Position numbers and translations under genes: made by a program | The notes under the pieces: generated by a model | What the model was told of the DNA's origin: nothing | The model's input: the letters and a program-made list of their open reading frames with translations, nothing else | Databases searched by the model: none | Part shown: one piece after another, positions 1 to 63,664 of the stretch | Layout of the letters: each line of letters opens with the position of its first letter | How positions within the stretch are numbered: the first letter of the stretch is position 1 | Assembly (NCBI GenBank): GCA_002269645.1 | Contig: NIVC01001154.1 | Span: 124,001-188,000 of the forward strand | Direction: 5' to 3' | DNA length: 64,000 bases | Source of the DNA: Macrostomum lignano | Taxonomy: Eukaryota

Positions 1-445
1 GCTTAGTTGTCGTCTGCACAGAGAGTATGGGATCAGCCCTACAACAAAAATCTGGCTTCGCCTGTCTGTCGGTCTTAAAAAAAAATTTAGCTTGATACTC
101 GTAAACTATTAATCAAACGTAAATCTGCATCATTTAAGATCTGTTATTAAATACAACAATAGATTAAAGGAATCCACAATTTGTTTGTGCTCGTAATCTA
201 GTCTGTGACGAGTTTTCAAAAATAAATCAGATAAGTCAAAGGCAAACAAAAACATTTCCAAGAGAGCACATTTCACTTGCTCAGATTAGAATTTGCTGCA
301 ACTCGCTATATTTTCGATCGTATTAGGTTTCAAAAAAACTAAGCAATCCACCTTGTTAACAAACCAGGCTAGGAAACACATAATCAACAACTACCATGAA
401 CTTGCTATTGAAGACGTCAAGTTCTCTCTCTCTCTCTCAATTAAT

Positions 446-1003
446 TCATTCGCCGCGCAGCTTAGCCTTCTTCAGCTTCTTCTTGCTTTCTTTCTTCTTC
501 GCGGACGTCTCCTCTGTGTCGGCGGCGCGGGCGACCACCTGCTCCTTCTCGTTCAAGATGACCTCAACGTGGCATGGCGAGGACATGTAGGGCCCGATGC
601 GGCCGTGGGCTCGGTAGGTCCTGCGACGCATTTTGGGCGCCCGGTTGACCTGGATGTGATCAATAACCAAATGATCGGCGTCGAGGCCTTTAAACTCGGC
701 GTTGCTTTCGCAATTCTTCAACAATTGTAGAAGAAATTCGCAGGACTTTTTCGGCCAACGACCGGTGGCTGTGCCCCAGACCTTGGACTGCGCGTGCCGG
801 CCAGTGCCGCCCATGAACCGCCTGAAGGGGACAATCTCCTTCTTGGAGATGACGTTCTTTAAAAATCGCTGCGCCCGTTTTAGCGCCATGCCGCGCACAG
901 CGCCGGCGGTTTCGCGGGTATTTTTAAAGTGCACGCGCAAGTAAGAGCCGCGCGCCTTGGCGCATTTTGCGGCGCTCTCTGGCTTAACGCTGTACCGGCC
1001 CAT
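446..1003 (-). CDS. RPL17: 60S ribosomal protein L17 (uL22), uninterrupted 185-aa CDS
   Basis: MGRYS...[18 protein letters not shown]...[70 protein letters not shown] is the recognisable eukaryotic L17 sequence; lysine-rich C-terminus; no stops or frameshifts. Confidence 0.97.
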
Positions 1004-1650
1004 CGTTCAGAAAGGTCACTGAAGTTGGAGGTATGCAGGCTTACATGGGAGATGGCATGAATTAAAAATGGGGCATAATGCCTTTAAACTGAATATGCGC
1101 AGATAGGAACACGTAAATAATCTAGATGAGTTAAAGATACATTGTGAAGAATTAACAAAAGAGCTTAACAGATTTTTAGGCTTTAGCTAACTACCAACTA
1201 TAAATTGATGTTTTTACTATAGATAAGAGAAAGCAATTTTTAAAGAGAAGCATCAATATAGCTGCTACCATAATCTGAGACAAATTGAAGGACTTTTTTA
1301 TGCTTAATAAAAAATTTCAAGACAGTTGTGTGTGGTTGGAGAAAATGACAAATATTATGACAAATTTGACAAAATTTCCTATTTTTTAGTAAGTGTCTGG
1401 ATTTGTTTTTTTGCTTTGATTTGACTGTGACCTAGACAAATTATTGTAGGACAAATTAACTCCTATCAGGTTTTTAAGTGGTTGAAATGGTCAAATATTT
1501 TTTTCTAGAAACTGTTTGCTTTATTAGACTAGTGACAAAAATATTTTTTTAAACTGCATGAGAAAAGTCTTATACTTTAGGAAGATAAAATTAATGATAA
1601 CAAATTATAACATTATTTTATCTGCGGGACACATTATATGTTTACATGTA

Positions 1651-9053: not shown

Positions 9054-9992
9054 ATGGCTTCCGGAGTGAAAGTTCAGCAGGAGGTGCTTGACACCTTCCA
9101 GGAGATCAAGACCAACCACTGCTACAGGTATCTGCTGTTTGGCTTTGTCAATAATGACAAGGAGATTGGCGTTTTGAAAAAGGCCCCAGCTGACGCCACC
9201 TACAATGAATTCATAGAAGATCTGAAGGACTCGGTGAACAGGAAAGTTGGCTGCTATGCCGTTTATGACTTGGTCTTCGAATTTGAAGAGTCCAAGCAAA
9301 AGCGCAGCCGGCTCGTTTTTGTGTCTTGGTTAGTTGTTTTGCCTTTTTAACTGTGTGTTGATGGGATCCCCAATGATAGGCATCAGTTGTTGGGATTCCC
9401 CAATAATAGGCATCAGTTGTTGGGATTCCTAATGATAGGCATCAGTTGGTGGGATCCCCAATGATAGGCATCAGTTGTTGAGATTCCCCAATAATAAGTA
9501 TCAGTTGTTGGGATTCCCCAATAATAGGCATCAGTTGTTAGGATTCCCAATGATAGGCATCAGTTGTTGGGATTCCCAATGATAGCCATCAGTTGTTAGG
9601 ATTCCCAATGATAGGCATCAGTTGTTGGGATTCCCCAATGATAGGCATCAGTTGGTGGGATCCCCATTGATAGGCATCAGTTGGTGGGATCCACAATGAT
9701 CTGAGATTTCTAGTGAGGGAAAACTCTCGACCGAAGTCTAACCCGCTTGAACCCAATATTTGGGATCTTTCTTCTAGAATCTAAAAATACAATGCATTAA
9801 TTGATTTCCACTGTGTCCAGGGGTCCCGACGGCATCCCAATCAGACAGAAGATGCTGATCGCCTCGTCCAAGGTTGAGTTGAAGAACAAACTGCAGGGCA
9901 TCTTCAAGGAGCTGCAGGCTAGCGGCATCGATGAGGCTTCGGAGGAGTGCATGCTGGAGCTCTGCCGCCAGGGCGACCGTGGCGCCAACTGA
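9054..9992 (+). CDS. Cofilin/actin-depolymerising factor (ADF-H domain), 148 aa; exons 9054-9328 and 9821-9992
   Basis: MASGVKV...YRYLLF...GCYAVYD...RLVFVSW|GPDGIPIRQKMLIASSK...LQAS is the ADF-H pattern; a GT (9329)..AG (9820) phase-2 intron joins TG|G into Trp; the spliced length of 447 nt is a multiple of 3. Confidence 0.92.
9358..9700. repeat. Minisatellite, 29-30 bp unit (TGGGATTCCCCAATGATAGGCATCAGTTGT), ~11 copies, inside the cofilin intron
   Basis: Direct tandem copies visible. Confidence 0.95.
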
Positions 9993-11068
9993 GCGAGCAG
10001 CCTGTCAGCCGGTGGTTATTCATCATCAGTTTTTCTATTATATTATTAATAATGAATATTTTTTTTGACAACCAGTTCATTTGCACTCGACCGCCCGCAT
10101 TATTAAAAAACCCTATGCCTATCTTTATAACTGTCTTTAAATATATTATTAAGTAATATGTAGGCCTTGACTATTGGACTGAGTTACTTAAGTTTTCATT
10201 TTGTTATAATCAAGACAGCAGAAATATAATTGAAAAAAACATGATTCCATCAAGCTTGGCATGTGGCAGTCTTTGATGCAACTCCCAGTCTCTCTGTGTA
10301 TTCCGTAGAGCTTTTTGACAACTCTGTCAATAATTAACTTTTCCAAGAAGCCCGTCACATTTCCTGTGCTACATTAAATTCTTTGTTGTGTTGTCTCTTT
10401 ACATCCACGCCGTAGCTAATAGTTAGTGGGAGTCGGTTAGCCTGTCTGTTGTGTCTGCTATTGTTAAAGCGGAGCAGCCTTCCTATTTGACAATGTTAAA
10501 CGCATCGGTTTTCCTTTGCTTCTCATTATTCTGTTCTCTTTCTGAAGTTAAATAAACAAATGCAAATGCAAATTAAAATATTCTTCCCACCTATATTTAA
10601 CTGTCTAATCCGGTTTTTTCGTTTATTTGTTTCCCAGTTTATATTTAGCAAAATAGTTTTTCTGTCGGTTTTTATCCACCAGTCAGTAGTAAACAATTGA
10701 AAGGATGAATATAAACTGAACTAAATACACGAGAGCATCCAGTAAACTGTGTCCGCGTGCTGTGAGGAATGCCTTTGCCACAAAATAAAATAATAATAAA
10801 CATGTCGATATCGCCTTTGAAATCTCATTTTGCAATCGTTTTTTATCTACGAGTAATAATTGCTTTATTTAGGACAGCGCCACAATGTACAAAGCAAAAG
10901 TAATTGTAATTCATGCACATCGGCTGCAATACTATGCTAGATCCGGTACAATAGCTAGCGCATTGACAGCGAACTCGAATCAGGCGAAGTTAAGAGACAC
11001 TATCAACAACTAGCTAGCTTGCCTGTAAAACGAGCGGCACGAAAACTTCTACGCTCGTATATGGCTAG

Positions 11069-11641
11069 TGTAGTAGGGCATTATTTTAGGAACGGGAAAT
11101 TTTGTGGGTTTAAATATGCTTTTACCCTACTATCAGTAGTTTCAACCCGGGGAAATAATTAGAGCGGGGGTAAGTGGCTAAAATCGGGATTCCTTTAGAA
11201 CTACAGAGCAGTTGGGCTCTCGGGAAAGAAAACTCGGACCTTCGTTGGAGTGTCTTCTCCTGTTTAAACTTAGAGAGTTCACGAAGAAGTGGTAAGGAAA
11301 GGGAAATATAAGGGATAGGCTTGCACAGAGGAGTCTTGCCTCTAAAAACTGGGAGTCTTGCCCAAGCACTATAACGGGAATAAGAAAATAGGGAATTAAT
11401 GTAAAAGCAAAACTAACTTTTGTACCGTAATTCACTTTTCTATTATAAAGCTTTTTTTGTGTTAACTAAATCCAAATTGGTGTCCTGACTTGGTTCTTTA
11501 AGCCTAAAGCTAGAATTAAGGAACAGCAGGAACCTGGTGGCAGCGAACTACCAAACATTAAGCAGTACCACAGATAGCAATCCGCTCATAATCCTTAGCA
11601 ATAAGAACCAGTAGCTTAGCCGCGGTTACACGCCCATTCCA
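11069..11641 (+). repeat. 5' LTR of element A
   Basis: Starts TGTAGTAGGG, ends CCCATTCCA; near-identical to 30917-31489. Confidence 0.97.
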
Positions 11642-13760: not shown

Positions 13761-14812
13761 TGTAGAGTATTATATCTCCCAGAAAAGTTATTTAAAATTG
13801 TTAACGTACTACTTAAATAGTAGTAATTTGAGGAGCATGTATAAGGATATGCGCTGAACCATACATATATTCGAATTAACCAATAGAAAGAGAGAAATCT
13901 CGAGCATGCTAATTTTAGAAATCACCCAATCACGTGCGACCAACAACTGTCAATTCAAACCCCACCTTCAAGTCATCATTTGGTTTGCACTCGGGTTGCA
14001 CCCGGATGAACCAATCAAAGTCTACCAGCTACGGTAACCAATCATGCGCTTTTACAGTAGACTAGTTGCGCAACTTTCTACCCTGTCATGCTTGACAGCC
14101 ACCGAATCGTGACCCTTTGACATTTGCGAAGACAGTGATGTACGACCTCGAGAGAGGTCTGAACGCCTATAAATACAAGTGGTCCGGAACGGACCCGGAG
14201 CCAAGAAATCTCCAAGGGAGAGAAGCTCCGAAGAGGAAGCTCTAGTGAAGCCTTCCTGAAGAAACTCGCGTCGTGGACGAGTTCTTGCGGTAAGCCTTAC
14301 TCATTTGCGCCCGTTGGTTGAGACGTCTCGCTCAAGTCTATTGAGACTTGAGTTTATTTGAGTCTGTTGAGACTCTTGAGTCTGTTTAGACTCCACTGGT
14401 TGCAGTCTCCAGAAGGACTGCCCCTGATAGATCTTAGAAGACTATCAGTGGTTTCCGGAGCCATACCTAGAGTGCATAGAGGCACTACTAGAAGGAGTAG
14501 GCTTATATTAAACCGCAGATTGGCGCAGGGTACCCATTGTTGATTTGGAAGCTTCCCATTGGTCCGCACTACAGATACCGGCCGGAAACGACTTCAGTGG
14601 ACGTAAAGGAACGCGGACCTGGTTACGAACATAGACGTCTAACGAAGTTCGAGGTTCAAAGGAAGTCCGAGAATAACAGAACACGGAAGAGCTCTCAGAG
14701 ACAGGACTCAAGGTAATACATACCTTCATTTGATTACTGGGTTGCCTAGCTACAGAGCTAGAAGTGATTGTTCCTTGATTACAGCTGAGGACTGGTAATA
14801 AGGAACACATCA
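13761..14812 (+). repeat. 5' LTR of element B; several CCAAT boxes and TATAAATA at 14168
   Basis: Near-identical to 24544-25594. Confidence 0.97.
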
Positions 14813-14814
14813 AT

Positions 14815-14825
14815 TGGTGATCTCG
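14815..14825 (+). promoter_or_regulatory. Primer-binding site of element B (TGGTGATCTCG; primer tRNA uncertain, closest to a Trp-type TGGTGACCCCG)
   Basis: TGG-initiated sequence 2 nt (AT) after the LTR-terminal CA. Confidence 0.7.
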
Positions 14826-15508
14826 CCCTCTCGGCACTACTCAAACTTTTGAGCAATAGCCTGGCCAAGCTATTGTAAAGTGACGAAAGAGCGACTTCAT
14901 TAATTTTGCGCGCACGTGTTAGAGGTAACACTTTTCGACACTTTTCGATTTTTGTACGATTTGAAACTCGAGTAAAAGTTTAGATATACAGGCTTGAGTA
15001 CCTGTCAATTTTGAGTAACGTTTGAGCACGCGTGTTAAATTTTTGTTTTTAACGAGCTCGAGCAAGAGTAAACCTTAAACAAAACCGAAAACAACGTCCG
15101 GTACACTGAAAACAAACCGAAAAATAATCAATACACACTAAAACAAAACCGAAATTAAAAACACTTGACGAAAGCTAAAACAAACCGAAATTTGATAAAA
15201 CGTGACAAGGCACGTCACGAAGACAAGAAAGGCCTTTGAAAAAAGCAAGAAGCAGCTGCACTTCAAGCACTTTAAAGATACACTTTGCGGGACGCCGCAT
15301 AAGTGCGAAAATCAGCCAGCGAATAAGAGGTCAGAAAAAGCAGCCAAAAGCCGAATTCCGCTCAAGGTCAGACATAACAAATTGAGGTGTCAAAAGCGCC
15401 GCGAGACAATCAGTTACAACCGAAGTTTATTTCGAAAGAAACACCACACTGGAAGATCCATTACAAATCGACCCAGACCTAGAGCTACCGTTCTATCCCA
15501 TCAACAAC

Positions 15509-16591
15509 ATGGCGCGGCGCAATCCAACGGTGCACAGAGATATCAAAGAGACAGTTGGCACCTTTTCTATGGAAAAAGACTTTAACACCTTTGTTGATCA
15601 TTTTGACCTGGTATGTAGGGAATACAACCTACAAAATCCAGAAAAAGCGCAACTGTTGCCACCACTCCTCCAAGGCACTGCACGAGAGATTTATGGTAAA
15701 CTAGACGCGGCAACACAGCAAAACTACCCAGCATTAATCATTCAACTGCGCGCACACTTCAACCGCTGTGGCACAAACAGGTCAGTGCTACTGCACAAGT
15801 TGCATAACAGACGGATGCAGCCAACAGAATCCTTCCTGACCTTCGTGGACGATATACGTCAAATAATTAAGGCACTGCATCAGCCAACGCTGCCAGCTGC
15901 GGATCAGCCACCTCCAGGCGCAGCGGAGTTAGCCGCAAGAGAGCGACAACGATTGATGGACCGTGAACAAAACCTCATCCTGCACGTAATAAACAATGCA
16001 CAGCCGTCACTGCGGGATAGACTTTTGCGCGAGAACATTGAAACCGAGGAAGACCTTTTACGGTGCGGAATGCAGTGGGAAGCAAGCGCTCCACTAATGA
16101 CAACCGGCAACACAGAAGTGCAGAAACTGACACAGCAACTAAACAAACTGATGCAACATCAAACAGCCGTTATCGCCGAACAAAAAAGACGAAATGAACG
16201 AGCCCAAGCCAGATGCTATTACTGTGGACGAGAAGGACACTACCAAATACATTGTCCTCATCGGTCAACAAGAAATGATATGCCGCGACAGCCATTCAAC
16301 AGACGAAAGCCGCAAAAACCATGGCAACAGCATCAAAATTGGCAGCAGCAAAACACGAAACGCTTAGGAAACAATGGCTACAGACCGCGAAACGCCAGAT
16401 ACATGCCCAAGCAACCAACGCAAGCGATGCAACGATATGCAAACGCCATCACGTACACACCGGAAAGCGAACAGCAAGAGCAGCAAGTCTTCACGATAGA
16501 CGACTTGAAATGGACTTCACTATCAATGAAATCGACTGGCTCGATGCGGAGAGCAGCGAAAAGACAAAAAACATCAGCATGGTCGAAATGA
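15509..16591 (+). CDS. Element B Gag (capsid + CCHC knuckle)
   Basis: FNTFVDHFDLVC...LLQGTAREIY...LHNRRMQPTESFLTFVDDI capsid-like pattern; CYYCGREGHYQIHC = CX2CX4HX4C. Confidence 0.93.
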   Translation: MARRNPTVHRDIKETVGTFSMEKDFNTFVDHFDLVCREYNLQNPEKAQLLPPLLQGTAREIYGKLDAATQQNYPALIIQLRAHFNRCGTNRSVLLHKLHNRRMQPTESFLTFVDDIRQIIKALHQPTLPAADQPPPGAAELAARERQRLMDREQNLILHVINNAQPSLRDRLLRENIETEEDLLRCGMQWEASAPLMTTGNTEVQKLTQQLNKLMQHQTAVIAEQKRRNERAQARCYYCGREGHYQIHCPHRSTRNDMPRQPFNRRKPQKPWQQHQNWQQQNTKRLGNNGYRPRNARYMPKQPTQAMQRYANAITYTPESEQQEQQVFTIDDLKWTSLSMKSTGSMRRAAKRQKTSAWSK

Positions 16592-19500
16592 AAGAAACTA
16601 ACATTGACAGCGAAGAAGAAAAGGCAGAAGTGAGCACAGAAAAAACATTGCCAAGCGACATCAATGAAAGAAAAGAAGAAACAAACAAAGGCAACGACAA
16701 AGAACTGGCAACGAAGGATGACAACGAAAGAAGCAACGACGGAAATGCAGAAATGGAAGAAGAACAGCAAGAAGAAAGCAGCGATCACGATTATGAGATG
16801 CAGAATGACGCTGATGACAACCAAGCCGCCGACAAAGAACATGAAGACGGAAGGCACAAAGGAATGGAAGAAAGAAATCTAAGCTCCGACAGCGATCAAT
16901 GCTACGAGATCCGATATAAACGAAATGGTGAAGCCTACATTCAAACGGTCGACTACAAGGCCGAAGTAAGGTACCGCAGACAATGGAGTGACACAACTAC
17001 AACATCGGAAGAAAGCAAGGACGAAAATGATGAAGACGACAAGCAGCGGAACGAATCGGATGCCTTGCGCTCGGAAACGCCAATGGAACAAGAGGAAGAA
17101 TACGATGCGGACGCAGAAGATAACGAATGGCAGCCGCAGCCAATGCCAGCAAAGACAACGGCAACGTTCAGAAAATGGCGATTCTGGATATTCTGGATCA
17201 TCATAATACTACTGACGGCAGTAGTCACCAAAGCAACAGCAATGGAGAAACCAATGATATGTCCAACGGATGCGCATATCCAACCGATGATCTACAAGAT
17301 ACCAACCGACATCAAATGCAGCTACTTCAAGACAAATCAGACGAAGCCAAAGAAGATCACAATTGATCTCTACAAAGCTAACATCAAGAAGCATCGACAA
17401 CTCGGAATAGTGTGCTTTAGAGACAAGCACCTAGTGGAAAAAGTTTGGCGAGGACAATGGAACAGAATTCGATTTTGGCAACACGAACTACATGTGTCGC
17501 ACGCTGAATGTCTACAATGGAACCAAACACTGTTCTCAAAGGATGGTCAGCTAGAACCGGATGAGAAAGTGGGGGAGGCACAACTTTACCGAACGAAGAA
17601 CTCAGCAAACGGACGATATGTACACTTTTCGGAAGCATGGACTAACTACATGACACGAAACAGTTACCTAATCAGGAATATTCCATTCTACCACAATCCT
17701 TTTGAAAAAATGGAGTCGCTACAACTGCAATTAAGCGACTGCCGATACAGCAAAGGATGGTGTCCAACGCCGATACTGCGGAATGAGGAACTATACAGCT
17801 TACCGTTGAGTCCAACATATCATCAAGACTATCGATGGCAAATAATACGCAGAGGCGACTCACGATATGAAGAACCATCTAAGTCACGACAATACTTCTT
17901 CGCGTGGGAAGTTGAGCCGGAAATTGACTGCAAGCTTCAAAAGTATCACACAGTTGAAGGAGGTCTACTGTCAAACACGTTTTTGGCAAAGTCAGGAGAC
18001 TTGGCACTGACATTTCAAAAGAAACCAGTCGAGCAAAAACTGAAATGCAAGGATACAGACAAGACACTATTCATCTCGGAACAAGAGATACCAGTCTACG
18101 TAAAAGATGACGACAAACAAACCTTTCTGGCGATCATCAACGGAACGTATCAACAGCAGGAACAACAGAACAGACGACGACGTGACATCGAACGTCCCAA
18201 ACTGGTGTCAAACCGACTACTGTCAGCAAAGATAACGGCTTTGGATCACAATCTACACAACCAGTTAAACCACTTGCATCGAACACTGGTCCAGCTAACT
18301 TGCAAAATGCACGCAATCAACTTAAATTATGCCAGACAAAACTACTATGTCAACCCTACGATGACTTTTCGTAAAATCACCGGAATGACGAACGTTTTGG
18401 CAGTTCCAATATACGAGCATCTGTTGATATACAAGTGCACGCCGATACAGCACTTTAACATCTTGCCGTCGAACACGTCAACAACCTGCTACGACAAGCC
18501 AAGGATTGAAGCGTTCTACGAAGGAAAACGAATTCAGGGATTCTTGGACACGGTACACAACATCATCGTTGGCACCGCAATACCGAGACCTTGCACCACG
18601 GCAGCGAACTACTATCAACTGGACAATGCACTACACGTCATCAAAACAACTGGAACGACAGCAAACATCACAGAACCGGAAGTAATCGTCGACGAAAACT
18701 ACGACATGGAGGATTTGAAAATCCGATTCAACAGAACAAAGTATACGCCATTCGCCGATATCCAACTTGACGAAATAACACCAGGATGGACGATCAACGA
18801 CTTCTTGCAAGCGTTCATCACCCAACGCAAGATGATTCACCAGCTGTTCACAAGAAAGGACAAAGGAACCGGGACAGGAAGATTTCCCGTCCTTGTTTCA
18901 ATGGACAGCGCCATCAAATCATTTTGGACAAACAGCTTCTGGGAGCTGCTCAATGGAAGAGGCAGTCTCTATCAAGGATTCATCTTCTACGGTGCTTGCA
19001 TTGTGTGGATTGTCACGGCAATCTTCATCATTTCGTCAATCGTACGGTGCTTCAGTCAAACTTGTCCAAGAGCTAAGAAGACAGTGAATGCCATAATGCA
19101 AAGAACGACAACGGAAGGCGACAACAGTTTAGAACTAACAGAAACTGCACATCGTGAGGTTCAAGGGCAACCGACACTAGCAACGCGGCTATATCCATCG
19201 ATTCCGACAACACCAACGGCACCAAGAATACAACCACCTAACTATCAAGCAGAACAGCAAGACCCAAAATGGCCAGAAAACTACGTATGTACTCTACACG
19301 CCGAAATTGGCAAAGCAATGGCTCAAGTTATAATCAACAATCTACCATGTCGAGCGTTACTGGACTCCGGCAGCTCCATTACAGTTATATCAAAACAACT
19401 GTGCAACAAGCTACGACTTGCTCTACGGCCAGCAACAATCGCAGTTGCAGGAGCAGGAGGACATTCGCTAAACATTCTGGGAAAAGCCGACATTGATTTA

Positions 19501-21156
19501 AGAATCGCTAATAAACATTTGACAGTTCCAACGTACGTCATCGACAGACTCCCAAACCAGGACGTTATTGTTGGCATCGACACGTTCAAGCAGCTTCGAC
19601 TACCATTGACCTTCGACTTCAATAAGCAAACGTTCAAGATCGACTCGGTAGAACAACCATTGATCAACCAGATCCGAGTACTACCAAAAGTAACATTGCA
19701 ACAAGATGTCATCATCCAACCGGAGAGCGCCTGCTGGATAAAGGCAAAGGCAACTAACGCAACGGAGGAAGCAATGATATTCGACCCAAACAGAAGAGTC
19801 ACGGCTAAACACCAAATTATGATGCCTACGGCACTAGTACTGGTTGCAAAAGATAAACAGCTGCCAGTACAAATATTCAACCCGAACACAGAAACGGTTC
19901 ATCTACGACAAGGAATGTGCATCGGTCATCTCAACACCCAAGCATCGGTTATGCTGATTGAGCAAGCGACTCCACGACTAACAGAGGAAGAATTTCAAAA
20001 GAAGATCAATTTGGATGACAGCCCGATTACGGAACAGCAAAAGAGGAAAGTTCGACAGCTGTTGTGGAAGTACAACGACGCTTTCTGCCACCATGACTAC
20101 GACATCGGACGAGCCAAGGACATCAAACAGGAAATCAAACTTCTGCCGCACACGGAACCAATTCAGTGCAAACCGTACCCGATCGCCAAGCATCTGCAAC
20201 AGCACTTCGATGAGATTATCGACAAAATGCTGAAACACGGCATCATCAGCAAAGCCATTTCAGCATACTCATCACCATGTCTCTTGGTGCAAAAGAAGGA
20301 GACTAACGAAAGACGACTCGTATGTGACTTCAGACTACTGAACAAGTACATACCGACGGATCAGCAAAGCCTACCGAAGATCTCCGAACTACTAGCAAAG
20401 CTCAACACGGCAAAATTGTTCACAGTGTTCGATCTACGTCATGGATTTTGGCAAATTGAAATCGAGAAAGAGTCACGACAGTACACGGCTTTCAAAACCT
20501 ACAATGGACAAGTATACGAGTACAATCGATCGCCGATGGGACTCAGCAACAGCCCAGCAACGATGAGCCGACTAACAGCATACATGCTTGCAGGATGCAC
20601 GAACCTGTTGCACTATGTTGACGACATCTTGGCCTACGGAGAAGACTTCGAACGACTCTATGAAGCGACGGAGAAGGCCCTCGCGCTTATACAACGTCAA
20701 GGTCTGAAGCTACAACCAACTAAATGCAAATTCTTCCGAGACAACGTGCGTTACCTGGGACATCAGGTGACAGCCAAAGGAATTTCACCGGACCCAGACA
20801 ACGTGGATAAAGTGAAAAAGTTTCCTACGCCAACTAGCATAACGAAGGTCCAATCATTTCTTGGACTAGCGCAATACTTCCGAAAGTTCTTACCCAACTT
20901 CGCGAAGACAGCAAAGCCGCTGTACGACCTGCTCAAGTTCGACAAATGGAAGCAGGAGAATTGGACACAAAAGCAACAAGAAAGTTTTGACGAAATCAAA
21001 CGACAGCTGACATCAGACGCACTGCTACAGCATCCGGACTTCGACAAACCCTTCATCATCGAGACAGACGCCTCAGGAACGGGACTCGGAGCGTCCTACT
21101 ACAGGAAACTGAAGAAAAAAGGAACGACCTATAGCCTACGTCAGTCGAGCACTTAA
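16321..21156 (+). CDS. Element B Env-Pol polyprotein: acidic linker, signal peptide, class III-like glycoprotein ectodomain, TM, late-domain tail, protease, RT, start of RNase H
   Basis: Hydrophobic WRFWIFWIIIILLTAVVTKATA (from 17176); 12-Cys ectodomain with RRRR furin site (18172-83); TM GFIFYGACIVWIVTAIFIISSIV (from 18976); LLDSGS (D at 19363); YVDD (20614); IIETDASGTGLGA; all in one stop-free frame. Confidence 0.93.
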   Translation: MATASKLAAAKHETLRKQWLQTAKRQIHAQATNASDATICKRHHVHTGKRTARAASLHDRRLEMDFTINEIDWLDAESSEKTKNISMVEMKETNIDSEEEKAEVSTEKTLPSDINERKEETNKGNDKELATKDDNERSNDGNAEMEEEQQEESSDHDYEMQNDADDNQAADKEHEDGRHKGMEERNLSSDSDQCYEIRYKRNGEAYIQTVDYKAEVRYRRQWSDTTTTSEESKDENDEDDKQRNESDALRSETPMEQEEEYDADAEDNEWQPQPMPAKTTATFRKWRFWIFWIIIILLTAVVTKATAMEKPMICPTDAHIQPMIYKIPTDIKCSYFKTNQTKPKKITIDLYKANIKKHRQLGIVCFRDKHLVEKVWRGQWNRIRFWQHELHVSHAECLQWNQTLFSKDGQLEPDEKVGEAQLYRTKNSANGRYVHFSEAWTNYMTRNSYLIRNIPFYHNPFEKMESLQLQLSDCRYSKGWCPTPILRNEELYSLPLSPTYHQDYRWQIIRRGDSRYEEPSKSRQYFFAWEVEPEIDCKLQKYHTVEGGLLSNTFLAKSGDLALTFQKKPVEQKLKCKDTDKTLFISEQEIPVYVKDDDKQTFLAIINGTYQQQEQQNRRRRDIERPKLVSNRLLSAKITALDHNLHNQLNHLHRTLVQLTCKMHAINLNYARQNYYVNPTMTFRKITGMTNVLAVPIYEHLLIYKCTPIQHFNILPSNTSTTCYDKPRIEAFYEGKRIQGFLDTVHNIIVGTAIPRPCTTAANYYQLDNALHVIKTTGTTANITEPEVIVDENYDMEDLKIRFNRTKYTPFADIQLDEITPGWTINDFLQAFITQRKMIHQLFTRKDKGTGTGRFPVLVSMDSAIKSFWTNSFWELLNGRGSLYQGFIFYGACIVWIVTAIFIISSIVRCFSQTCPRAKKTVNAIMQRTTTEGDNSLELTETAHREVQGQPTLATRLYPSIPTTPTAPRIQPPNYQAEQQDPKWPENYVCTLHAEIGKAMAQVIINNLPCRALLDSGSSITVISKQLCNKLRLALRPATIAVAGAGGHSLNILGKADIDLRIANKHLTVPTYVIDRLPNQDVIVGIDTFKQLRLPLTFDFNKQTFKIDSVEQPLINQIRVLPKVTLQQDVIIQPESACWIKAKATNATEEAMIFDPNRRVTAKHQIMMPTALVLVAKDKQLPVQIFNPNTETVHLRQGMCIGHLNTQASVMLIEQATPRLTEEEFQKKINLDDSPITEQQKRKVRQLLWKYNDAFCHHDYDIGRAKDIKQEIKLLPHTEPIQCKPYPIAKHLQQHFDEIIDKMLKHGIISKAISAYSSPCLLVQKKETNERRLVCDFRLLNKYIPTDQQSLPKISELLAKLNTAKLFTVFDLRHGFWQIEIEKESRQYTAFKTYNGQVYEYNRSPMGLSNSPATMSRLTAYMLAGCTNLLHYVDDILAYGEDFERLYEATEKALALIQRQGLKLQPTKCKFFRDNVRYLGHQVTAKGISPDPDNVDKVKKFPTPTSITKVQSFLGLAQYFRKFLPNFAKTAKPLYDLLKFDKWKQENWTQKQQESFDEIKRQLTSDALLQHPDFDKPFIIETDASGTGLGASYYRKLKKKGTTYSLRQSST

Positions 21157-21171
21157 ACCGAATGAGACAAA

Positions 21172-22824
21172 ATGGTCAGCTACGGAACGAGAACTACTAG
21201 GAGTTCTGTTCGCCTACGACAGTTTCACTACTACATCTATGGATCTCCATTACAGACGATAGTACGCACAGATCACGCACCGCTGACCTACGTCGTAACT
21301 ACAAAAGGACAAACAAACAACCGACTCATCAGGATGACACTCAAGATCCAGGACTACAACTACAAGCTCGTCTACAAACCAGGAATTACTAACAAGGCCG
21401 CGGACGCCCTGTCAAGAACCTACGAAGTCAACGCCATTCATCCAATCCCTAACATCAAGGAATTGGTGGATGAGACGGAACACGACAACTTCTACATAGC
21501 AGTTAAAAACAACGACAAGGACATCAAGCTCAGCCCCGTGGAACGAAAATTCCTGCGCAAGCAGCGACAACATTTAACAATCAACAAGTCACGACTCTAC
21601 TGGATGAGTGACAACAAACCTAAAATCTACATGCCATATTCGTTTAGGCAGGCAATTCTCAACGAGCTGCACGACAACCCACTCGCTGGACACCTGTCGG
21701 CAGCCAAAACCATTGCAAGAGTGGAGCAATACTACTTTTGGCCAAGCATGCATGGCGACATCAAGCAGTATTGCAACAACTGCCACTCATGCGCAGCATC
21801 GAAGACAGGACGACGACAAAAACCACAGCTACAATCGATACCAAAGTCAACAACTATGGACTGTCTCAGCATCGACATCACCGGACCGCTGCCACCGAGC
21901 TGTCTCCATGGCATAGCCTACACCTACATCCTAACAGCCTTGGACATTTTCTCAAAGTTTGCTATTGCCATACCAATACCGGACATCACAGCTCAGACAG
22001 TGGCAATGGGTTTCTTCAACGACATCATCTGCAAGTACGGTACGCCAAAGAACCTCACATCGGACAATGGATCGCAGTTTACGTCTCAACTCTTTCAGCA
22101 AGTGGTGAAGATCCTCAACATCACGCAGATCTACACATCGACCTACAATCCGAAGGCGAACATGGTTGAAAGGTTTCACCGCAACCTACACGAGATGATT
22201 ACACACTTCGCGCATCAACAACCGGACGACTGGATCATCTATCTGCAAGCAGTAACAATGGCCTACAACAGCGCTATTCATCGATCAACGGACAATACGC
22301 CATTCTTTCTAATGTTTGGGCGAGACTTCCAGCCGCCAAACCTATTGGCACAGCAACTACTACCATCGCAATATGTGGAAGTCCCGACGTCCATTCAAAA
22401 GTTCGTCACGCAACTACACCTCGCATGGAAAGTAGCCAAGCACAACATCGACAATCAGGTGGCTCTGACCACCGGCACCGACACGAGATCGACAACTCTG
22501 ACAGCCGGCGACATCGTCTACCTGCACTATCCGCCACAACAGACGCACAAACACGCACAGAAGTACAAAGGACCATATCGAGTGGTCCAACTAACGTCAC
22601 CGACAACGGCACGCCTGGCCAATGTGCAAGATCCTCATCAGCACCAATTCTACGTGCACATTCATCGATTGAAAAGGGTCAACACTGACACGGCGACATT
22701 TCTACCGTCACTTGACAATGCCGACCGCACGCGTTCGACAAACCGCCACATCGCAACGAAGCACGAGGAGACTCAAACAACGAACGAGAGCCAGCCGCAC
22801 GGCTATAATCTGCGACCTCGTTAA
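21172..22824 (+). CDS. Element B Pol, 3' part (RNase H remainder + integrase); same frame as the upstream ORF
   Basis: RTDHAPL, NKAADALSR; HHCC (HDNPLAGH...CNNCHSC), SIDITG / SDNGSQF / VERFHR DDE triad, GPY motif. The true junction is masked by three 1-nt deletions at 21093-21214. Confidence 0.93.
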   Translation: MVSYGTRTTRSSVRLRQFHYYIYGSPLQTIVRTDHAPLTYVVTTKGQTNNRLIRMTLKIQDYNYKLVYKPGITNKAADALSRTYEVNAIHPIPNIKELVDETEHDNFYIAVKNNDKDIKLSPVERKFLRKQRQHLTINKSRLYWMSDNKPKIYMPYSFRQAILNELHDNPLAGHLSAAKTIARVEQYYFWPSMHGDIKQYCNNCHSCAASKTGRRQKPQLQSIPKSTTMDCLSIDITGPLPPSCLHGIAYTYILTALDIFSKFAIAIPIPDITAQTVAMGFFNDIICKYGTPKNLTSDNGSQFTSQLFQQVVKILNITQIYTSTYNPKANMVERFHRNLHEMITHFAHQQPDDWIIYLQAVTMAYNSAIHRSTDNTPFFLMFGRDFQPPNLLAQQLLPSQYVEVPTSIQKFVTQLHLAWKVAKHNIDNQVALTTGTDTRSTTLTAGDIVYLHYPPQQTHKHAQKYKGPYRVVQLTSPTTARLANVQDPHQHQFYVHIHRLKRVNTDTATFLPSLDNADRTRSTNRHIATKHEETQTTNESQPHGYNLRPR

Positions 22825-22970: not shown

Positions 22971-23639
22971 ATGGGCAATGCACAGTCTAGACTGGCGACC
23001 CAGCCACGGCAACTCTATGAATGCCCTGTCTGTTTGGAAGATGACCTGTATAAAAAACCACCAACCATTTGTATAAATAATCATCGCATATGCGGCACTT
23101 GCTTGTGTGACGCGCATCATATCCAACACTGGCAAAGCTGCCCCCTATGTAGGAGTAGTCTGACGCAGTGCGCCTATTGTTATTCGTGGCGCACCTTTCA
23201 ATACTGTAATCAAAGTCATTTTATTTGCATGCAATGCTTGAAACGAACCGCTAGTAGGGGCATCATAGGATGCCCTATGTGTAACAGTATGCCGAAGGAC
23301 AGCACCTTCAAGAAGTGGTGTCGCATCAAGCCCGACGCCAATCGATGCTTACATGTTGATAATATTCGAACACTACCCGCAATACGTATCGAACAGTTGC
23401 TAGAGTTTTGGCCAGTACCTCGTTTCGCTCGACGGTCACGCAATGAATTACTACCGTACGCACATAACAATCAAGGAATATTGCGTCATATGTTACCCCT
23501 GGATATAGAACGACATCTACGACAATTTTTGCATGCCCATCACGCGTTTCACTGGACATTGCACATATATTGCCACGCGCTAAAAAGATTAATTTTGTCA
23601 CGTAGTTATTTCATATGGCTTTTACGGTATACACAGTAG
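22971..23639 (+). CDS. Element B accessory ORF 1: tandem C3HC4-type RING protein with N-myristoylation motif (222 aa from the ATG)
   Basis: MGNAQS; CPVC..CINNH..CGTC..CPLC and CAYC..CNQSH..CMQC..CPMC; lies inside the LTR boundaries. Confidence 0.85.
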   Translation: MGNAQSRLATQPRQLYECPVCLEDDLYKKPPTICINNHRICGTCLCDAHHIQHWQSCPLCRSSLTQCAYCYSWRTFQYCNQSHFICMQCLKRTASRGIIGCPMCNSMPKDSTFKKWCRIKPDANRCLHVDNIRTLPAIRIEQLLEFWPVPRFARRSRNELLPYAHNNQGILRHMLPLDIERHLRQFLHAHHAFHWTLHIYCHALKRLILSRSYFIWLLRYTQ

Positions 23640-23693: not shown

Positions 23694-24332
23694 ATGGCCG
23701 AGAACAACGACGTATGCCCCTGCTGTCTCGAGACGCGGGACTATATGATCCCGACGTGTGAGTGGGGACACCGCGTGTGTGTCTCCTGCGACGCCATGGC
23801 GCAGCAGGTGGATGGCAATGTTACCATGCTATCTACCTGCCCGGTCTGCCGTCGCGCGCGGGCTACCTGTGTGGTATGCGGCGAACAGCCCCATGTTCAG
23901 GTGTGTTCCAACCGACATTGGGTCTGTGCAAGCTGTCTCCGAAGGTACGGTGCAAGAGATATAGAGATCTGCACCGAATGTCTAGCTCCTGTCAACCATT
24001 CGACGGCGCTGATGTTGGCGACAATAACACCAGTGCCAGAGTTGACGTTGGCGGAGCCGGACAGCTTGACCTTCGAGCAATTGTCCATCGCCGTCCGGTC
24101 GTGGCCGTGGCCGCACCGGCATCAGGAGTCATGGCGTCACGTCCTTGGAATTTCCAGGAGCCTGGCTCGCGAGCACCCAGGACTCACGAGTATTGACGCC
24201 TACCTGATGATACTCGAGCGCACAGAGGAACCGCGCTTCACACGCTTTCAGCCGACATTCTGGGCGGTGGCATGTCTGGCTGCGCGAACAGCGCAGCAGA
24301 TATCCGCCGTGCTCAAAATCGGGTTCGGCTGA
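23694..24332 (+). CDS. Element B accessory ORF 2: tandem C3HC4-type RING protein, 212 aa
   Basis: CPCC..CEWGH..CVSC..CPVC and CVVC..CSNRH..CASC..CTEC; same architecture as accessory ORF 1. Confidence 0.85.
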   Translation: MAENNDVCPCCLETRDYMIPTCEWGHRVCVSCDAMAQQVDGNVTMLSTCPVCRRARATCVVCGEQPHVQVCSNRHWVCASCLRRYGARDIEICTECLAPVNHSTALMLATITPVPELTLAEPDSLTFEQLSIAVRSWPWPHRHQESWRHVLGISRSLAREHPGLTSIDAYLMILERTEEPRFTRFQPTFWAVACLAARTAQQISAVLKIGFG

Positions 24333-24505: not shown

Positions 24506-24540
24506 AAACTCGGGACGAGTTTTTTCGTAAAAAAGGGAGA
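24506..24540 (+). promoter_or_regulatory. Hairpin (AAACTCG-GGA-CGAGTTT) and polypurine tract of element B
   Basis: Perfect 7-bp stem followed by AAAAAAGGGAGA, 3 nt before the 3' LTR. Confidence 0.8.
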
Positions 24541-24543
24541 TTT

Positions 24544-25594
24544 TGTAGAGTATTATATCTCCCAGAAAAGTTATTTAAAATTGTTAACGTACTACTTAAA
24601 TAGTAGTAATTTGAGGAGCATGTATAAGGATATGCGCTGAACCATACATATATTCGAATTAACCAATAGAAAGAGAGAAATCTCGAGCATGCTAATTTTA
24701 GAAATCACCCAATCACGTGCGACCAACAACTGTCAATTCAAACCCCACCTTCAAGTCATCATTTGGTTTGCACTCGGGTTGCACCCGGATGAACCAATCA
24801 AAGTCTACCAGCTACGGTAACCAATCATGCGCTTTTACAGTAGACTAGTTGCGCAACTTTCTACCCTGTCATGCTTGACAGCCACCGAATCGTGACCCTT
24901 TGACATTTGCGAAGACAGTGATGTACGACCTCGAGAGAGGTCTGAACGCCTATAAATACAAGTGGTCCGGAACGGACCCGGAGCCAAGAAATCTCCAAGG
25001 AGAGAAGCTCCGAAGAGGAAGCTCTAGTGAAGCCTTCCTGAAGAAACTCGCGTCGTGGACGAGTTCTTGCGGTAAGCCTTACTCATTTGCGCCCGTTGGT
25101 TGAGACGTCTCGCTCAAGTCTATTGAGACTTGAGTTTATTTGAGTCTGTTGAGACTCTTGAGTCTGTTTAGACTCCACTGGTTGCAGTCTCCAGAAGGAC
25201 TGCCCCTGATAGATCTTAGAAGACTATCAGTGGTTTCCGGAGCCATACCTAGAGTGCATAGAGGCACTACTAGAAGGAGTAGGCTTATATTAAACCGCAG
25301 ATTGGCGCAGGGTACCCATTGTTGATTTGGAAGCTTCCCATTGGTCCGCACTACAGATACCGGCCGGAAACGACTTCAGTGGACGTAAAGGAACGCGGAC
25401 CTGGTTACGAACATAGACGTCTAACGAAGTTCGAGGTTCAAAGGAAGTCCGAGAATAACAGAACACGGAAGAGCTCTCAGAGACAGGACTCAAGGTAATA
25501 CATACCTTCATTTGATTACTGGGTTGCCTAGCTACAGAGCTAGAAGTGATTGTTCCTTGATTACAGCTGAGGACTGGTAATAAGGAACACATCA
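24544..25594 (+). repeat. 3' LTR of element B
   Basis: Near-identical to 13761-14812. Confidence 0.97.
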
Positions 25595-30906: not shown

Positions 30907-30916
30907 GAGGGGGAGG
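30907..30916 (+). promoter_or_regulatory. Polypurine tract of element A
   Basis: GAGGGGGAGG directly abutting the 3' LTR. Confidence 0.9.
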
Positions 30917-31489
30917 TGTAGTAGGGCATTATTTTAGGAACGGGAAATTTTGTGGGTTTAAATATGCTTTTACCCTACTATCAGTAGTTTCAACCCGGGG
31001 AAATAATTAGAGCGGGGGTAAGTGGCTAAAATCGGGATTCCTTTAGAACTACAGAGCAGTTGGGCTCTCGGGAAAGAAAACTCGGACCTTCGTTGGAGTG
31101 TCTTCTCCTGTTTAAACTTAGAGAGTTCACGAAGAAGTGGTAAGGAAAGGGAAATATAAGGGATAGGCTTGCACAGAGGAGTCTTGCCTCTAAAAACTGG
31201 GAGTCTTGCCCAAGCACTATAACGGGAATAAGGAAATAGGGAATTAATGTAAAAGCAAAACTAACTTTTGTACCGTAATTCACTTTTCTATTATAAAGCT
31301 TTTTTTGTGTTAACTAAATCCAAATTGGTGTCCTGACTTGGTTCTTTAAGCCTAAAGCTAGAATTAAGGAACAGCAGGAACCTGGTGGCAGCGAACTACC
31401 AAACATTAAGCAGTACCACAGATAGCAATCCGCTCATAATCCTTAGCAATAAGAACCAGTAGCTTAGCCGCGGTTACACGCCCATTCCA
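30917..31489 (+). repeat. 3' LTR of element A
   Basis: Near-identical to 11069-11641; followed by the CTAG TSD. Confidence 0.97.
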
Positions 31490-32134: not shown

Positions 32135-35100
32135 TCACATGACCTCATCCAGTTCCACAACTGCGTCCTCCTCCATCGGATCCGAGGACACGAACACTCC
32201 GTCCGAGTATTGTAGTGGTCGCCGCTGCTGATCTCGCAGGCTGTCGGAATCTTCGCCAATTGATGACGGCCCCTCTGTCGACCTGGCGCCGGGAGTCAGA
32301 TTTGACGCTTCTCCTAGTTCAGCGCCGCCAGCAGTAGTCGGAGTGTCCGGTGGCGCGTAGCGCGGACTACTAGCGCCAGCGGCGTCTGGAGCGTCCGGGC
32401 TGGCAAAGCCAAGACCGAGTCGGTACCTGCCGCCGCCGCCGCCCGAGTCCGACGTCCAGTCGGAGATGCCAGGCAGCTGAGGAGGCATCGGGCGGCCTCC
32501 GTAGCCGCGGAATCCCTGACCGCCAGCTGACGGCTGCTTCCTTGCCAGGCGAACGCTCAGAACGCTGCCTTTGACCAGCTGGCCATCCAGCTGATGATAA
32601 TTGGGAGGGAGGTGTTGGAAAGTAGAGTTACGCCGCAGCATAGGAGCCTAGCAAAATCGAATATAATAAACACCGGTATAGAATGAGGGACTGAGTTGAG
32701 TGAAGGACTCACTGAGTTGAGTGAGGGACTCACTGAGTTGAGTGAGGGACTATCTGAGTTGAGTGAGGGACTCACTGAGTTGAGTGAGGGACTCTCTGAG
32801 TTGACTGAGGGACTCACTGAGTTGAGTGAGGGACTCTCTGAGTTGAGTGAGGGACTCTCTGAGTTGAGTGAGGGACTTTCTGAGTTGAGTGAGGGACTCT
32901 CTAAGTTGAGTGAGGGACTCTCTAAGTTGAGTGAGGGACTATCTGAGATGAGTGAGGGACTCTTCGAGTTGACTGAGGGACTCTTCGAGATTACTGAGGG
33001 ACTCTTTGAGTTGACTGAGGGACTCTCTTGAGTTGAGTGACGGACTCTGTGAGTTGAGTGAGGGACTCTCTGAGTTGACTGAGGGACTCTTCGAGTTGAC
33101 TGAGGGACTCTTCGAGTTGACTGAGGGACTCTTCGAGTTGACTGAGGGACTCTTCGAGATTACTGAGGGACTCTTTGAGTTGACTGAGGTACTCTGAGTT
33201 GAGTGAGGGACTTATTGAGCTGATGACGGTATTTCTCGAGTTGGTTGGAGTGAAGTTGCGATAATTATGGATAATCACGAGTTTTAAAAATATTTTAACG
33301 GCATGGTAATCGCTAGCCAAAGAAACTCCATCATACACATACGCACAACAAGGTTATGCAGTAGCAATTTCCGTACCACTGCTAAATAACAACTTTATGG
33401 AGCTGCAGTGTTGACTAAACAAGCTTTGTAACAAAATTGTAAGATAGCTAAGCTACATAAATGCCCAAACCTCAGATACAAAGTCTAGCCAAGTCCAACT
33501 CTCTCATTTAGAATTTGTATCTTAGCACATTTTCTTAATACTGCGCGCCAAAAACTGCAGTCGCGTGCTTGAATCACCTGTTCAGACAGGCCATGACCAG
33601 CCCTCCCCCTACCCTCACCTTTCCCTCGACTATTTATCTAGCCACCCAACTTAGCCTTCTACAAATTAGCTGGCAAGGCAATCTGATAAGAAAGGCGACT
33701 TGAACTGCATGAAACTGGCGATCGCGCACTGATTGAAATAAAAAAAGAGACTATAAAATCTTTCAAAGCTCCATGCGAGTGCCAGATACGAGTAGGTGAA
33801 AAAATGAGAACACAGGGACAGGGGGAAAGTAAAGTACCCATTATCTGTCTCACCTGCTTGTGCGCGCATGTGCACACGAAACACTAAACTGGTACTTGTA
33901 AGATTTTACCAAACTGTGTATTTTTGACGAGGGTTGACGGCAAGCTTAGTAATGAGCCATGATGAACTCACTGATGTGAACTCACTGATAAGCAGTTCGT
34001 TGCAGCCAGCTTCCACTAGGACCCTGTCTAGTCTGCCTTATGTAGCTGACACCCCTTAGCTGGCGCCCCTTCTGTAGCCGGCGCCTCTTTTGCTACCAGC
34101 GCCTGACTATGTTGATGGCGCCTCTATTGCTGACGCCCTTTTCTGTAGCTGGCGCCCCTTCTGTATCTGGCGCCCCCTATAAGCTGCCGTCTATTCAAGT
34201 CACAAGTCAAATTCAACGTCAGGGTACCCAAAAACCGATCATAAGCTTTACAGATCAAAAAAACTTTCTATTAGTGTAGAAACACCAGAAATTAATAGAA
34301 TTGCAGGCAAACTTGACAGTTGCATCCGTTTTTTCCGGTTAATAAAAATTTACTAAGCGATAAAAGCACATAAACAGAAACGAATAACCGCTAAACTCTA
34401 CAGAGGGGTAAAAGTTAGCAAGTGAAGGATGCGAGGGGTCCGGCAGCTAGTGAAACTTCTATAAACGGCCGGGACCAGATAAAATTTCTGCGTCAAAATC
34501 TTGCCGCCCGTACCGACTAAGCCATAGTTGGTAGCATAGCCCAAACTATTCAATACTTCTAAGTCTCTCAGGTTTAGTTTTGACCATAAATAGAATTTTC
34601 TCGGCGCCGGCCGCTTACCAAATAAGGAATGTGTCAGGCCTCGCGTAGACTAGAGCGGCCCGCCCCGCCTCCGAACTCTTACCAACCCCTCTTTGCCCCT
34701 GGACCGCCGGCTGCGCCACCCGCTACCCCCTAGGCCACCCCAGCCATAAGGCACGAAATTAATTTTTAATTACTAAGTCGCTAATAAGCGATTCCACCTA
34801 CTTACAGTAGAAAGCAGATAATATTAAGCAAATGTTTCAGCAAAAACAAACAACGCAAATACAATACGTAAACTGCTAAGTCAACAGAATTCTAATTCCA
34901 ATTCCAATTCGAAGTTAAGTGAAATTTTATGTTTTGATCTGTGCTTAACAGTGAAAAAATTAACAGAATCAATAAAAACAATTGTAAAAACTTCGCGACC
35001 GTTTCTGCATAAAAATCCTACATTAAGAACTTCTAAAAAACGACTAATGGCTAAATGTAACTTATAAGACGCTTTTAAAGAACTTTGCTAGTGACCTTCA

Positions 35101-39488: not shown

Positions 39489-40550
39489 ATGGCTCAGTTG
39501 CGACAAACATCCAACTCCGACAGAGAGAAGCTAATCAACGCATGGAATGATAGACAAAATTTGAGCACTGCTTCACACATTCTCGGGATAAAGCTGAAGA
39601 TGTCCAGACATATAATCCAGACTTACGTAGCTACTGGAAGAATTGCTGCTCTTCAACGTGGCGGAATAAGGGAGGAATCAAGCAAGATTGACACAGAAAT
39701 GCGCCAAGAGTTGACTCGCATTGTGGATGCCAATCTGTTTGCAACACTCAAGACCATGTGTCAGCAGCTGCACAAAAGACTGCCAAACAAACTCGTGGTG
39801 TCAACCACGACTGTGCACAGAGCACTGCAGGGCTCTCTGTACACATTCAAAATTGCAACTAAGGACGCGGACATTTGCCTGCAAGCCAACTCGGATGAAG
39901 TGCTTGCCCAACGATGCAACTATGCCCAGATGATGACGACGCTGCCACACGATGCCGTGGTGGTGTACATCGATGAGACTGTATATAACTTGTGGAGCCG
40001 AAGGTCACAAGGCCGAGCAATCAGAGGTCAGCCTGTGCCTCGCATCTGCACCACTCAGAGAGGACCATATTTGACCATTTTCCTTGCCGTCTCCTTTGCA
40101 CTGGGTTTGGTCAAGAGTGACATCTTCCAAGGAGGCCAAACGCGGCCGCGGTTTCAACAGTTTGTAAACGAGCTAGTGGAGCAAGTCCAAGGCCAGGTTA
40201 ACAATGCAAGAATTGTAATTGTCTGTGACGGGCCGACCTTCCACCGTGGAGTCATCGTGCCACAGAATCATCAGCCGAGGATTTAACTGCAGCTGCTTCC
40301 TGCCTATTCGCCGTTCCTAAACCCATGAGAAATGGCGCATAGCGCGGTGAAGGCTGACATCAGATGGCAGCTGGTCAATCCTGCCCTGGTGGAAGAGGAA
40401 GCTGGTGGAATTCTGGATGTAATGAACCATCCCGAGTGGCGCTGTATTCTGTTGGAGCGACTAGGCCGCATTGCCTTGGACATGGTAACACCACTGAAGG
40501 TGGCTCGCTGGGAAATTCATTGTGGCAGAAATTATGCTCAGTGCATCTAG
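39489..40550 (+). pseudogene. Tc1/IS630-family DDE transposase pseudogene
   Basis: HTH region; VYIDET, IVCDGPTFH and LPAYSPFLNP*E motifs; two in-frame stops (40284, ~40326); D-x33-E spacing as read. Confidence 0.88.
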
Positions 40551-40634
40551 CAGCAGCCCTTTGTCTAATGAGACTAGCTGACAAATTGACACCGTGCATC
40601 AGATGCAACCAGTGCTTATTTAGTGAGTCATTTG

Positions 40635-60661: not shown

Positions 60662-63664
<3,003 letters not shown>

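Follow-up and report, generated by a model that had tools for sequence, protein, structure and literature searches.

A gB-like class III envelope between gag and pol of an apparently young Ty3/gypsy retrotransposon in Macrostomum lignano

What kind of envelope protein is encoded at positions 17176-19053 of a 64,000-nucleotide stretch of the Macrostomum lignano genome (contig NIVC01001154.1, positions 124,001 to 188,000; hereafter the window), and what kind of element carries it? A sequence-only reading had proposed a class III fusogen resembling herpesvirus glycoprotein B (gB) or the chuvirus glycoprotein (G), captured from a virus, and not the F-type envelope of errantiviruses. With a probability of roughly 0.8, we conclude that this envelope gene (env) is carried by a young GAG-ENV-POL Ty3/gypsy retrotransposon with a gB-type class III envelope, in a Macrostomum flatworm, and that the element is mostly translated as a single Gag-Env-Pol chain.

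The env segment (17176-19053), on the plus strand like every other feature of the element, is stop-free and encodes 626 amino acids (aa), which are residues 286-911 of a 1611-aa open reading frame (ORF). Since this ORF runs stop-free from env into protease, reverse transcriptase (RT) and RNase H, env is not a free-standing ORF. The segment opens with a hydrophobic transmembrane segment, TM1 (17188..17241, hydropathy 2.19), which has basic residues on its N side and is followed by an A-x-A signal-peptidase site, and it closes with a second hydrophobic stretch, the C-terminal stop-transfer anchor TM2 (18976..19032, hydropathy 2.43), where the earlier reading had placed the C-terminal anchor. Between them lies the gB-type class III ectodomain (17242..18975), whose 578 aa contain exactly 12 conserved Cys and 6 N-x-S/T sequons, as had been claimed. 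The RRRR furin-type site was likewise located centrally (18172..18183), in a flexible loop immediately ahead of the central helix and followed by charged residues. Among the sequence motifs listed earlier, VSHAEC, DCRYSKGWC, NPT, LIYKC, CY..P, GFLD and both aromatic motifs were found, and the anchor residues W, C, NPT and R of the dotted motifs are present in env; the dotted spacings themselves proved only approximate, because three literal patterns (two spaced W/C or C/NPT, and NPT..R) matched nothing. Neither the six sequons (P=0.21, 5000 shuffles) nor the R-x-K/R-R site (P=0.23, 5000 shuffles) exceeds what composition predicts, so the sequons and the bare furin motif are unusable as evidence.

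To place the fold, we worked from the relatives of env. A full HMMER scan with env matched 51 relatives, and 40 of these were aligned with it, leaving out the identical protein P0003, nine long polyproteins and one fragment of 129 aa; a word-indexed homologue search with env gave 1 match among 3078 candidates. When the profile of this alignment was compared with the sequences of the PDB (E up to 1), all 33 matches were herpesvirus gB, with a best E of 7.5e-16. The AlphaFold model has a mean predicted local distance difference test score (pLDDT) of 76; long hairpins are seen in it together with a helix of 47 residues, and its C-terminal part is rich in beta strands. Foldseek matched it in the PDB to gB in all 32 of the listed rows (best E 1.7e-22). 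Full structural alignment by VIA-align against 48,161 chains placed gB at ranks 1-6 (HSV-1 gB, Z 11.5, 404 residues aligned, root-mean-square deviation (rmsd) 6.0), followed by Chandipura G (Z 7.0) and Bourbon virus GP (Z 6.2); a Z of 7-8 in this program may be background. The profile, model and fold searches all use one alignment and are therefore not fully independent. The gB-like fold is directly seen in these comparisons, which bear out the class III, gB-like and not F-type assignment of the sequence-only reading.

The model can also be followed domain by domain. Many PH domains align at model residues 34-304 (Z 4.6-5.9), inside the full gB match, consistent with a PH-like domain enclosing the fusion domain. 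The beta-rich fusion domain carries two internal aromatic loops, placed by secondary structure, not by coordinates. Candidate fusion loop 1 (17440..17460) forms the turn between the long strands E51-70 and E73-83, and candidate fusion loop 2 (17611..17640), which has no adjacent Cys-Cys pair, lies ahead of strand E134-151. The equivalent of gB domain III is the central helix (18211..18351; H324-370, pLDDT mostly 70-96), and the profile match to gB spans the same region. The N- and C-terminal segments form a beta crown (domain IV), to which domain IV of PRV gB aligns with Z 10.5, rmsd 4.1 and 164 residues over the model range 3..489. A C-terminal arm follows (H518-536, low pLDDT), leading to the membrane anchor at 18976-19032.

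The 'chuvirus-like' part of the earlier reading stood less well. The fold is class III and no Pfam family scores better than PF24664 (Monjiviricetes fusion), which matches 21 of the 41 members of the alignment, but the resemblance is not chuvirus-specific. Among the predicted viral proteins of BFVD, nyamivirus G came first (E 2.5e-25), herpes gB proteins began at rank 5, and no named chu-like G came before rank 19, below nyamivirus, herpes and entomopox proteins; some of these rows are unnamed, and the ranking involves no tree with viral sequences. The first Atlas match was the PF24664 cluster (score 0.90, low recognition), a lead only. As a separate observation, uncharacterised entomopoxvirus proteins at BFVD ranks 7, 11, 35 and 36 match the gB-type model, with E down to 5e-22.

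The relatives show which features of env are held constant. The cysteines do carry information: ten of the 12 Cys occur in every relative covering the column (23/23 to 37/37) and the other two in 34/35, and both the Cys and the aromatic tips of the loops persist at the roughly 20% identity of the relatives. At least two aromatics are found in loop 1 of 18/25 rows and, with a wide window, in loop 2 of 27/27 rows. In 28 of 35 rows the furin loop contains an RxxR. The loop-2 Cys-Cys pair, present in 18/27 rows, is missing from this env. In domains I/II this env carries about 38 extra aa (17764..17895, low pLDDT), an insertion that is lineage-specific: one of at least 25 aa occurs in only 4 of 36 rows, namely this env, P0002, P0005 and P0030. 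In the env tree (38 rows, FastTree, with long-branch warnings) env groups with P0002, P0004, P0005 and P0030 at a Shimodaira-Hasegawa-like (SH-like) support of 98, and in the RT tree (8 rows, long branches) the element groups with P0004 at 99.

Some relatives have peculiarities of their own. P0004 carries a long Thr-rich, mucin-like insertion within the env furin loop (residues about 990-1205), P0006 has a NADAR domain on the same chain as its related env, and P0039 and P0024 have two protease-like regions each. In P0045, a gB-type env lies downstream of integrase in a BEL/Pao element; it is nested among the GAG-ENV-POL envs on a long branch.

Around env, the rest of the element could be traced. 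It is bounded by a 5' long terminal repeat (LTR; TG...CA, 13761..14812) and a 3' LTR (24544..25594), whose 4-bp target duplication agrees at 3 of 4 positions. Over 1053 nt the two LTRs, each about 1.05 kb long, show 0 mismatches and 2 gap positions, and we therefore regard the insertion as very young. The primer-binding site (PBS; 14815..14828) starts 2 nt past the LTR and is one that we take to be tRNA-Val-like. The supplementary table of PMC13524379 gives 'others', and the first 12 nt are the same as the PBS of its entry Mlig_errantivirus_2. The gag ORF (15509..16591) contains a CCHC zinc knuckle; its Pfam matches are weak (zf-CCHC at E 0.037, and DUF1759), and it aligns with the Gag part of P0002, P0004 and P0030. 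An acidic and probably disordered Gag-Env spacer follows (16592..17175; Asp+Glu 33% over 190 aa). Downstream of env and in frame with it, Pfam recognised protease, RT and the start of RNase H (19324..21156), and the nearest RT among solved structures is that of yeast Ty3 (E 6e-52). A segment of RNase H (21090..21215), placed by comparison with an intact relative, is broken in this copy by two or more frame changes, and the remainder of RNase H and the integrase occupy 21172..22824 (Pfam RT_RNaseH, Integrase_H2C2 and rve). A polypurine tract lies at 24529..24540, and no canonical heat-shock triplets were found in the LTR. The protease-RT-RNase H-integrase order is thus that of Ty3/gypsy pol. 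Env lies between gag and pol within the LTRs and PBS; this gene order and the in-frame junction of env with protease and RT are directly observed.

How, then, is the envelope made? The hydrophobic stretch at 17188-17244 does end at the cleavage site named by the sequence-only reading; as judged from sequence comparison, however, it most likely acts within a polyprotein, as an internal signal and not as a classical signal peptide, because the N side of TM1 is net positive in 25 of the 31 rows with a TM1 call and in 19 of 30 rows the nearest upstream Met is more than 30 aa distant. Gag and Env lie on one chain in P0002, as a single ORF, and in P0004, as well as in P0003, the protein of a sister copy that is 95-100% identical across the coding blocks and identical in env over the 468 residues compared. 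Among the 50 relatives other than P0003, many of which are fragments, 19 carry a zinc knuckle ahead of env on the same chain, 14 carry a protease motif past TM2, and 9 combine the two in one chain.

We propose that the element would be translated largely as one Gag-TM1-ectodomain-TM2-Pol chain. TM1 would keep Gag in the cytoplasm and direct the ectodomain into the endoplasmic reticulum, with signal peptidase cleaving at A-x-A, and TM2 would halt transfer, returning the tail, protease, RT and integrase to the cytoplasm. The enzymes would then stay tethered to the membrane until released by the element's own protease. The ectodomain would be glycosylated, disulfide-linked, probably trimeric and cleaved by a furin-like protease, and its two aromatic loops may fuse membranes as in gB and rhabdovirus G. 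Particles could thereby pass from cell to cell, plausibly from soma to germ line, by analogy with Drosophila gypsy.

Several observations weigh against this reading. For the fold, the predicted template-modelling score of the model is just 0.47, and the Foldseek whole-chain TM-scores of 0.44-0.52 come with rmsd of 15-33 Å; the domain arrangement of the model is therefore uncertain. The single env sequence gave 4 matches to the PDB at E 0.25, all unrelated, and matched PF24664 below threshold (E 1.8e-5, 23.4 bits against a cut-off of 27). In addition, one of the 41 members of the alignment, P0011, matches the F-type family Baculo_F (E 2.8e-4). For the single chain, this copy reads gag in a frame other than that of env, and its RNase H is interrupted by frame changes; the single-chain counts are possibly inflated, because some database chains are gene models joining exons, as P0003 does; and a Met 15 residues before TM1 makes a separate env start possible.

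The frame changes of this copy also bear on the idea that env retains the gB fold without fusing membranes, either as the passenger of an intracellular element or as part of a dead copy. Env itself is intact, and the breaks lie near 16.5 kb, where gag shifts relative to env and P0003 reads through, and in RNase H; uninterrupted ORFs were the search filter of the catalogue in PMC13524379. This idea could also appeal to the missing loop-2 Cys pair and to the 38-aa insertion, and the accessible part of PMC13524379 reports that there are no functional data for members outside Drosophila. Set against these points are the conservation of all 12 Cys and of the aromatic tips of the loops at about 20% identity, and the identity of env to that of the sister copy over the residues compared. 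Because the LTRs are otherwise identical, differing by 2 gap positions only, the frame changes are probably errors of assembly or sequencing. We consider a non-fusing envelope unlikely, though it is the alternative to be taken most seriously.

Could the fusogen instead be produced apart from Gag? The env of Drosophila gypsy is made from its own spliced message. By the same token, the gB-type fusogen might come from a spliced or internally started message, with TM1 acting as a normal signal peptide and Gag being made separately. The Met upstream of TM1 and the different frames of gag and env in this copy would suit such a message, and some 2:1:1-style control of the amounts of Gag versus Env and Pol might be expected. 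The upstream Met is not conserved, however, as the distances in the relatives indicate; P0002, P0004 and the sister copy P0003 continue from Gag into Env on one chain; and the C-terminus of Env would still remain fused to Pol. A separate message thus appears rather improbable, and the single Gag-Env-Pol chain is preferred.

An origin by recent capture from a chuvirus or another negative-strand RNA virus has a precedent in the mosquito Anakin Pao elements, for which such a capture was proposed (10.1101/2020.02.15.950899, in its accessible part). Also in its favour are the standing of PF24664 as best Pfam family and the matches to nyamivirus and chu-like G in BFVD at E 1e-25 to 1e-17. The identity to viral proteins is just 8-14%, however, and every one of the 51 matches that has a recognisable neighbour domain lies in a retroelement context. 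The env and RT trees both place P0004 near the element (SH-like 98 and 99, with long branches and only 8 RT rows), and the accessible part of PMC13524379 argues for an ancient association of env and pol. We regard recent capture as very improbable. An F-type (class I) errantivirus envelope, to which the central furin site, the long helix and the one relative weakly matching Baculo_F might point, can be rejected with near certainty, because charged residues and no hydrophobic fusion peptide follow the RRRR site, because Baculo_F (PF12259) does not match env at E up to 1, and because the profile matches and the top fold matches are class III throughout. No F-type feature was found in env, and none of the 50 wide structural rows is an F-type protein, though this alone does not exclude the F type.

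Downstream of TM2, a cluster of late-domain-like motifs (19189..19245) lies within 19 residues of the 93-aa cytoplasmic Env tail or protease spacer. Following established retrovirology, its LYPxI, PTAP and PPxY may be read as putative late domains recruiting the endosomal sorting complex required for transport (ESCRT). Five of the 32 tails compared, among them that of this env, contain P[TS]AP, and the other 27 lack it; the shuffle mean was 0.25 and none of 1000 shuffles reached 5, and 1 of 19 Gag-Env linkers contains it. LYPx(1-3)L/I was found in 3/32 tails, a count reached by 2 of 1000 shuffles, and in 0/19 Gag-Env linkers. Two further candidates proved unspecific and were rejected: PPxY (3/32 tails, reached by 38/1000 shuffles, and also in 2/19 Gag-Env linkers) and YPxL (4/32 tails, reached by 94/1000 shuffles). 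The motifs were picked after being seen and the relatives are not independent; we treat these putative late domains as a lead, not a result. The other tails with P[TS]AP are those of P0004, P0011, P0013 and P0043.

Between integrase and the 3' LTR lie two accessory ORFs, each with two RING-like Cys/His clusters. ORF A (22971..23639) and its paralogue ORF B (23694..24332) share 29% identity (E 5e-14). No homologue of ORF A appeared among 33 candidates. ORF B gave weak Atlas leads to viral RING proteins, with scores of 0.90 or lower, and its structure model is of low confidence (pLDDT 49). The Cys/His spacing suggests that the two proteins might act as ubiquitin ligases.

The class to which this element belongs is already published. 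According to the accessible part of PMC13524379 (Chary and Hayashi), gB-type errantivirus env is as common as F-type, the GAG-ENV-POL order occurs in Nematoda, Bryozoa and Platyhelminthes, gB-type env is argued to be an ancient partner of Ty3/gypsy pol, and the cell-entry route of gB-type errantiviruses is stated as unknown. As cited there, nematode GAG-ENV-POL gB-type elements were first noted by Sacco et al. 2022, who may already describe the polyprotein in nematodes. Our element resembles the GAG-ENV-POL HSV/gB-type errantiviruses of that work in gene order, Ty3/gypsy pol, env between two hydrophobic segments and a variable furin site, and the relatives of this env resemble its bryozoan C2b rows by eye. 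It differs in lacking the loop-2 Cys pair and in having the 38-aa insertion, the two RING-like ORFs and the tail motifs; in the main text, the terms RING, polyprotein, late domain, ESCRT, budding and accessory have 0 occurrences. In five bryozoan GAG-ENV-POL rows of its supplementary file 1 that have LTR coordinates, roughly 1-2 kb lie between pol and the 3' LTR, if the sequence ranges given there end 3 kb past pol, which would leave room for unannotated accessory ORFs.

The supplementary table of PMC13524379 already covers the genus with Platyhelminthes_Rhabditophora_Mlig_errantivirus_2 (M. lignano, ENV_HSV, 16 copies), so that our element is either a new or an already catalogued member. The two agree in host genus, env type, PBS (12/12 nt) and the 2-nt LTR-PBS distance, but differ in LTR end-to-end length (10782 nt here versus 9728) and in the distance from PBS to the inferred pol end (8009 here versus 8181). 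With the same PBS and different LTR spacing, Mlig_errantivirus_2 would be the same family minus about 1 kb, or a sister family, as compared by table row, not by sequence.

Better-known fusogens and elements differ from this one in part. Like herpesvirus gB, env is laid out in the five domains of class III, with two internal fusion loops, a furin loop ahead of the central helix and a C-terminal anchor; unlike gB, with which it shares 10-14% identity, it is shorter, has no gH/gL partners in the element and is embedded in a retroelement polyprotein. With the nyamivirus, chuvirus and rhabdovirus G proteins it shares the class III fold and PF24664 as best Pfam family, although it falls below the Pfam cut-off. 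Drosophila gypsy and ZAM also carry env with a furin site on a Ty3/gypsy element, but theirs is F-type, with a class I fold, a position after pol and a fusion peptide past the cut, none of which is found here. Anakin, as described in the accessible part of 10.1101/2020.02.15.950899, comprises BEL/Pao elements of mosquitoes with a proposed chuvirus-type env capture, whereas our element is Ty3/gypsy. In the accessible part of PMC5408684, rotifer elements have accessory ORFs after pol, with 0 whole-word matches to RING.

Macrostomum has already been used for transgenic studies of LTR elements (PMC12801592, accessible part); the main text of that paper does not mention an envelope, and four short DNA motifs had 0 matches in its 5 text supplements. 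Two env peptide motifs had 0 matches in the eLife supplements (cells searched up to 400 characters). In the open-licence literature, searched with every term required together, nothing was found on gypsy LTR retrotransposons with an extra RING-finger ORF, on a polyprotein of non-canonical endogenous nematode metavirus glycoproteins, or on a PTAP late domain in a gypsy retrotransposon envelope. The details that we did not find in print are thus the likely single Gag-Env-Pol synthesis, the late-domain-like motifs of the Env tail and the two double-RING accessory ORFs.

The env-bearing element is itself nested in an outer Ty3/gypsy element (11068-31489, plus strand), between the protease and RT of the outer pol. 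The outer LTRs (11068-11641 and 30916-31489) are 99.8% identical with a perfect 4-bp target duplication, the target sites of the two elements share their last three bases, and no env was detected in the outer element. Elsewhere in the window are four host genes: RPL17 as one open frame (446-1006, minus strand), an RRM protein gene (35191-35925, minus), a TRIM-NHL-like gene with RING and NHL that is spread over two frames (47933-49989, plus) and PBX/extradenticle exons (60662-63455, minus). The RPL17 protein is 96% identical to one from M. lignano and 70-79% to its 58 other matches, which points to M. lignano or a close relative as host. Two DNA transposons were also found, a Tc1/mariner-like DDE element with terminal inverted repeats (39297-41247) and a P-element-like transposase flanked by 321-nt inverted repeats (51407-55994). 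Minisatellite arrays with units of 21-30 nt occupy 9311-9753, 32629-33237, 35825-36375, 41975-42446, 57106-57764 and 61228-62989.

The practical value of this locus is that Macrostomum offers a young copy whose env is intact, and that its gB-like protein comes without gH/gL partners. Concrete hypotheses follow for the topology of the polyprotein, the tail motifs and the RING ORFs. A bolder reading, which we offer tentatively and think doubtful, is that in GAG-ENV-POL elements one Gag-Env-Pol chain spanning the membrane twice would tie capsid and enzymes to the fusogen, that in this flatworm lineage budding would proceed via the ESCRT motifs of the Env tail and not of Gag, that the two RING ligases would help or protect, and that the element would be a live, enveloped element passing from cell to cell. 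If that is true, an enveloped analogue of a retrovirus, with a design unlike that of retroviruses, would be active in a transgenic, regenerating model animal.

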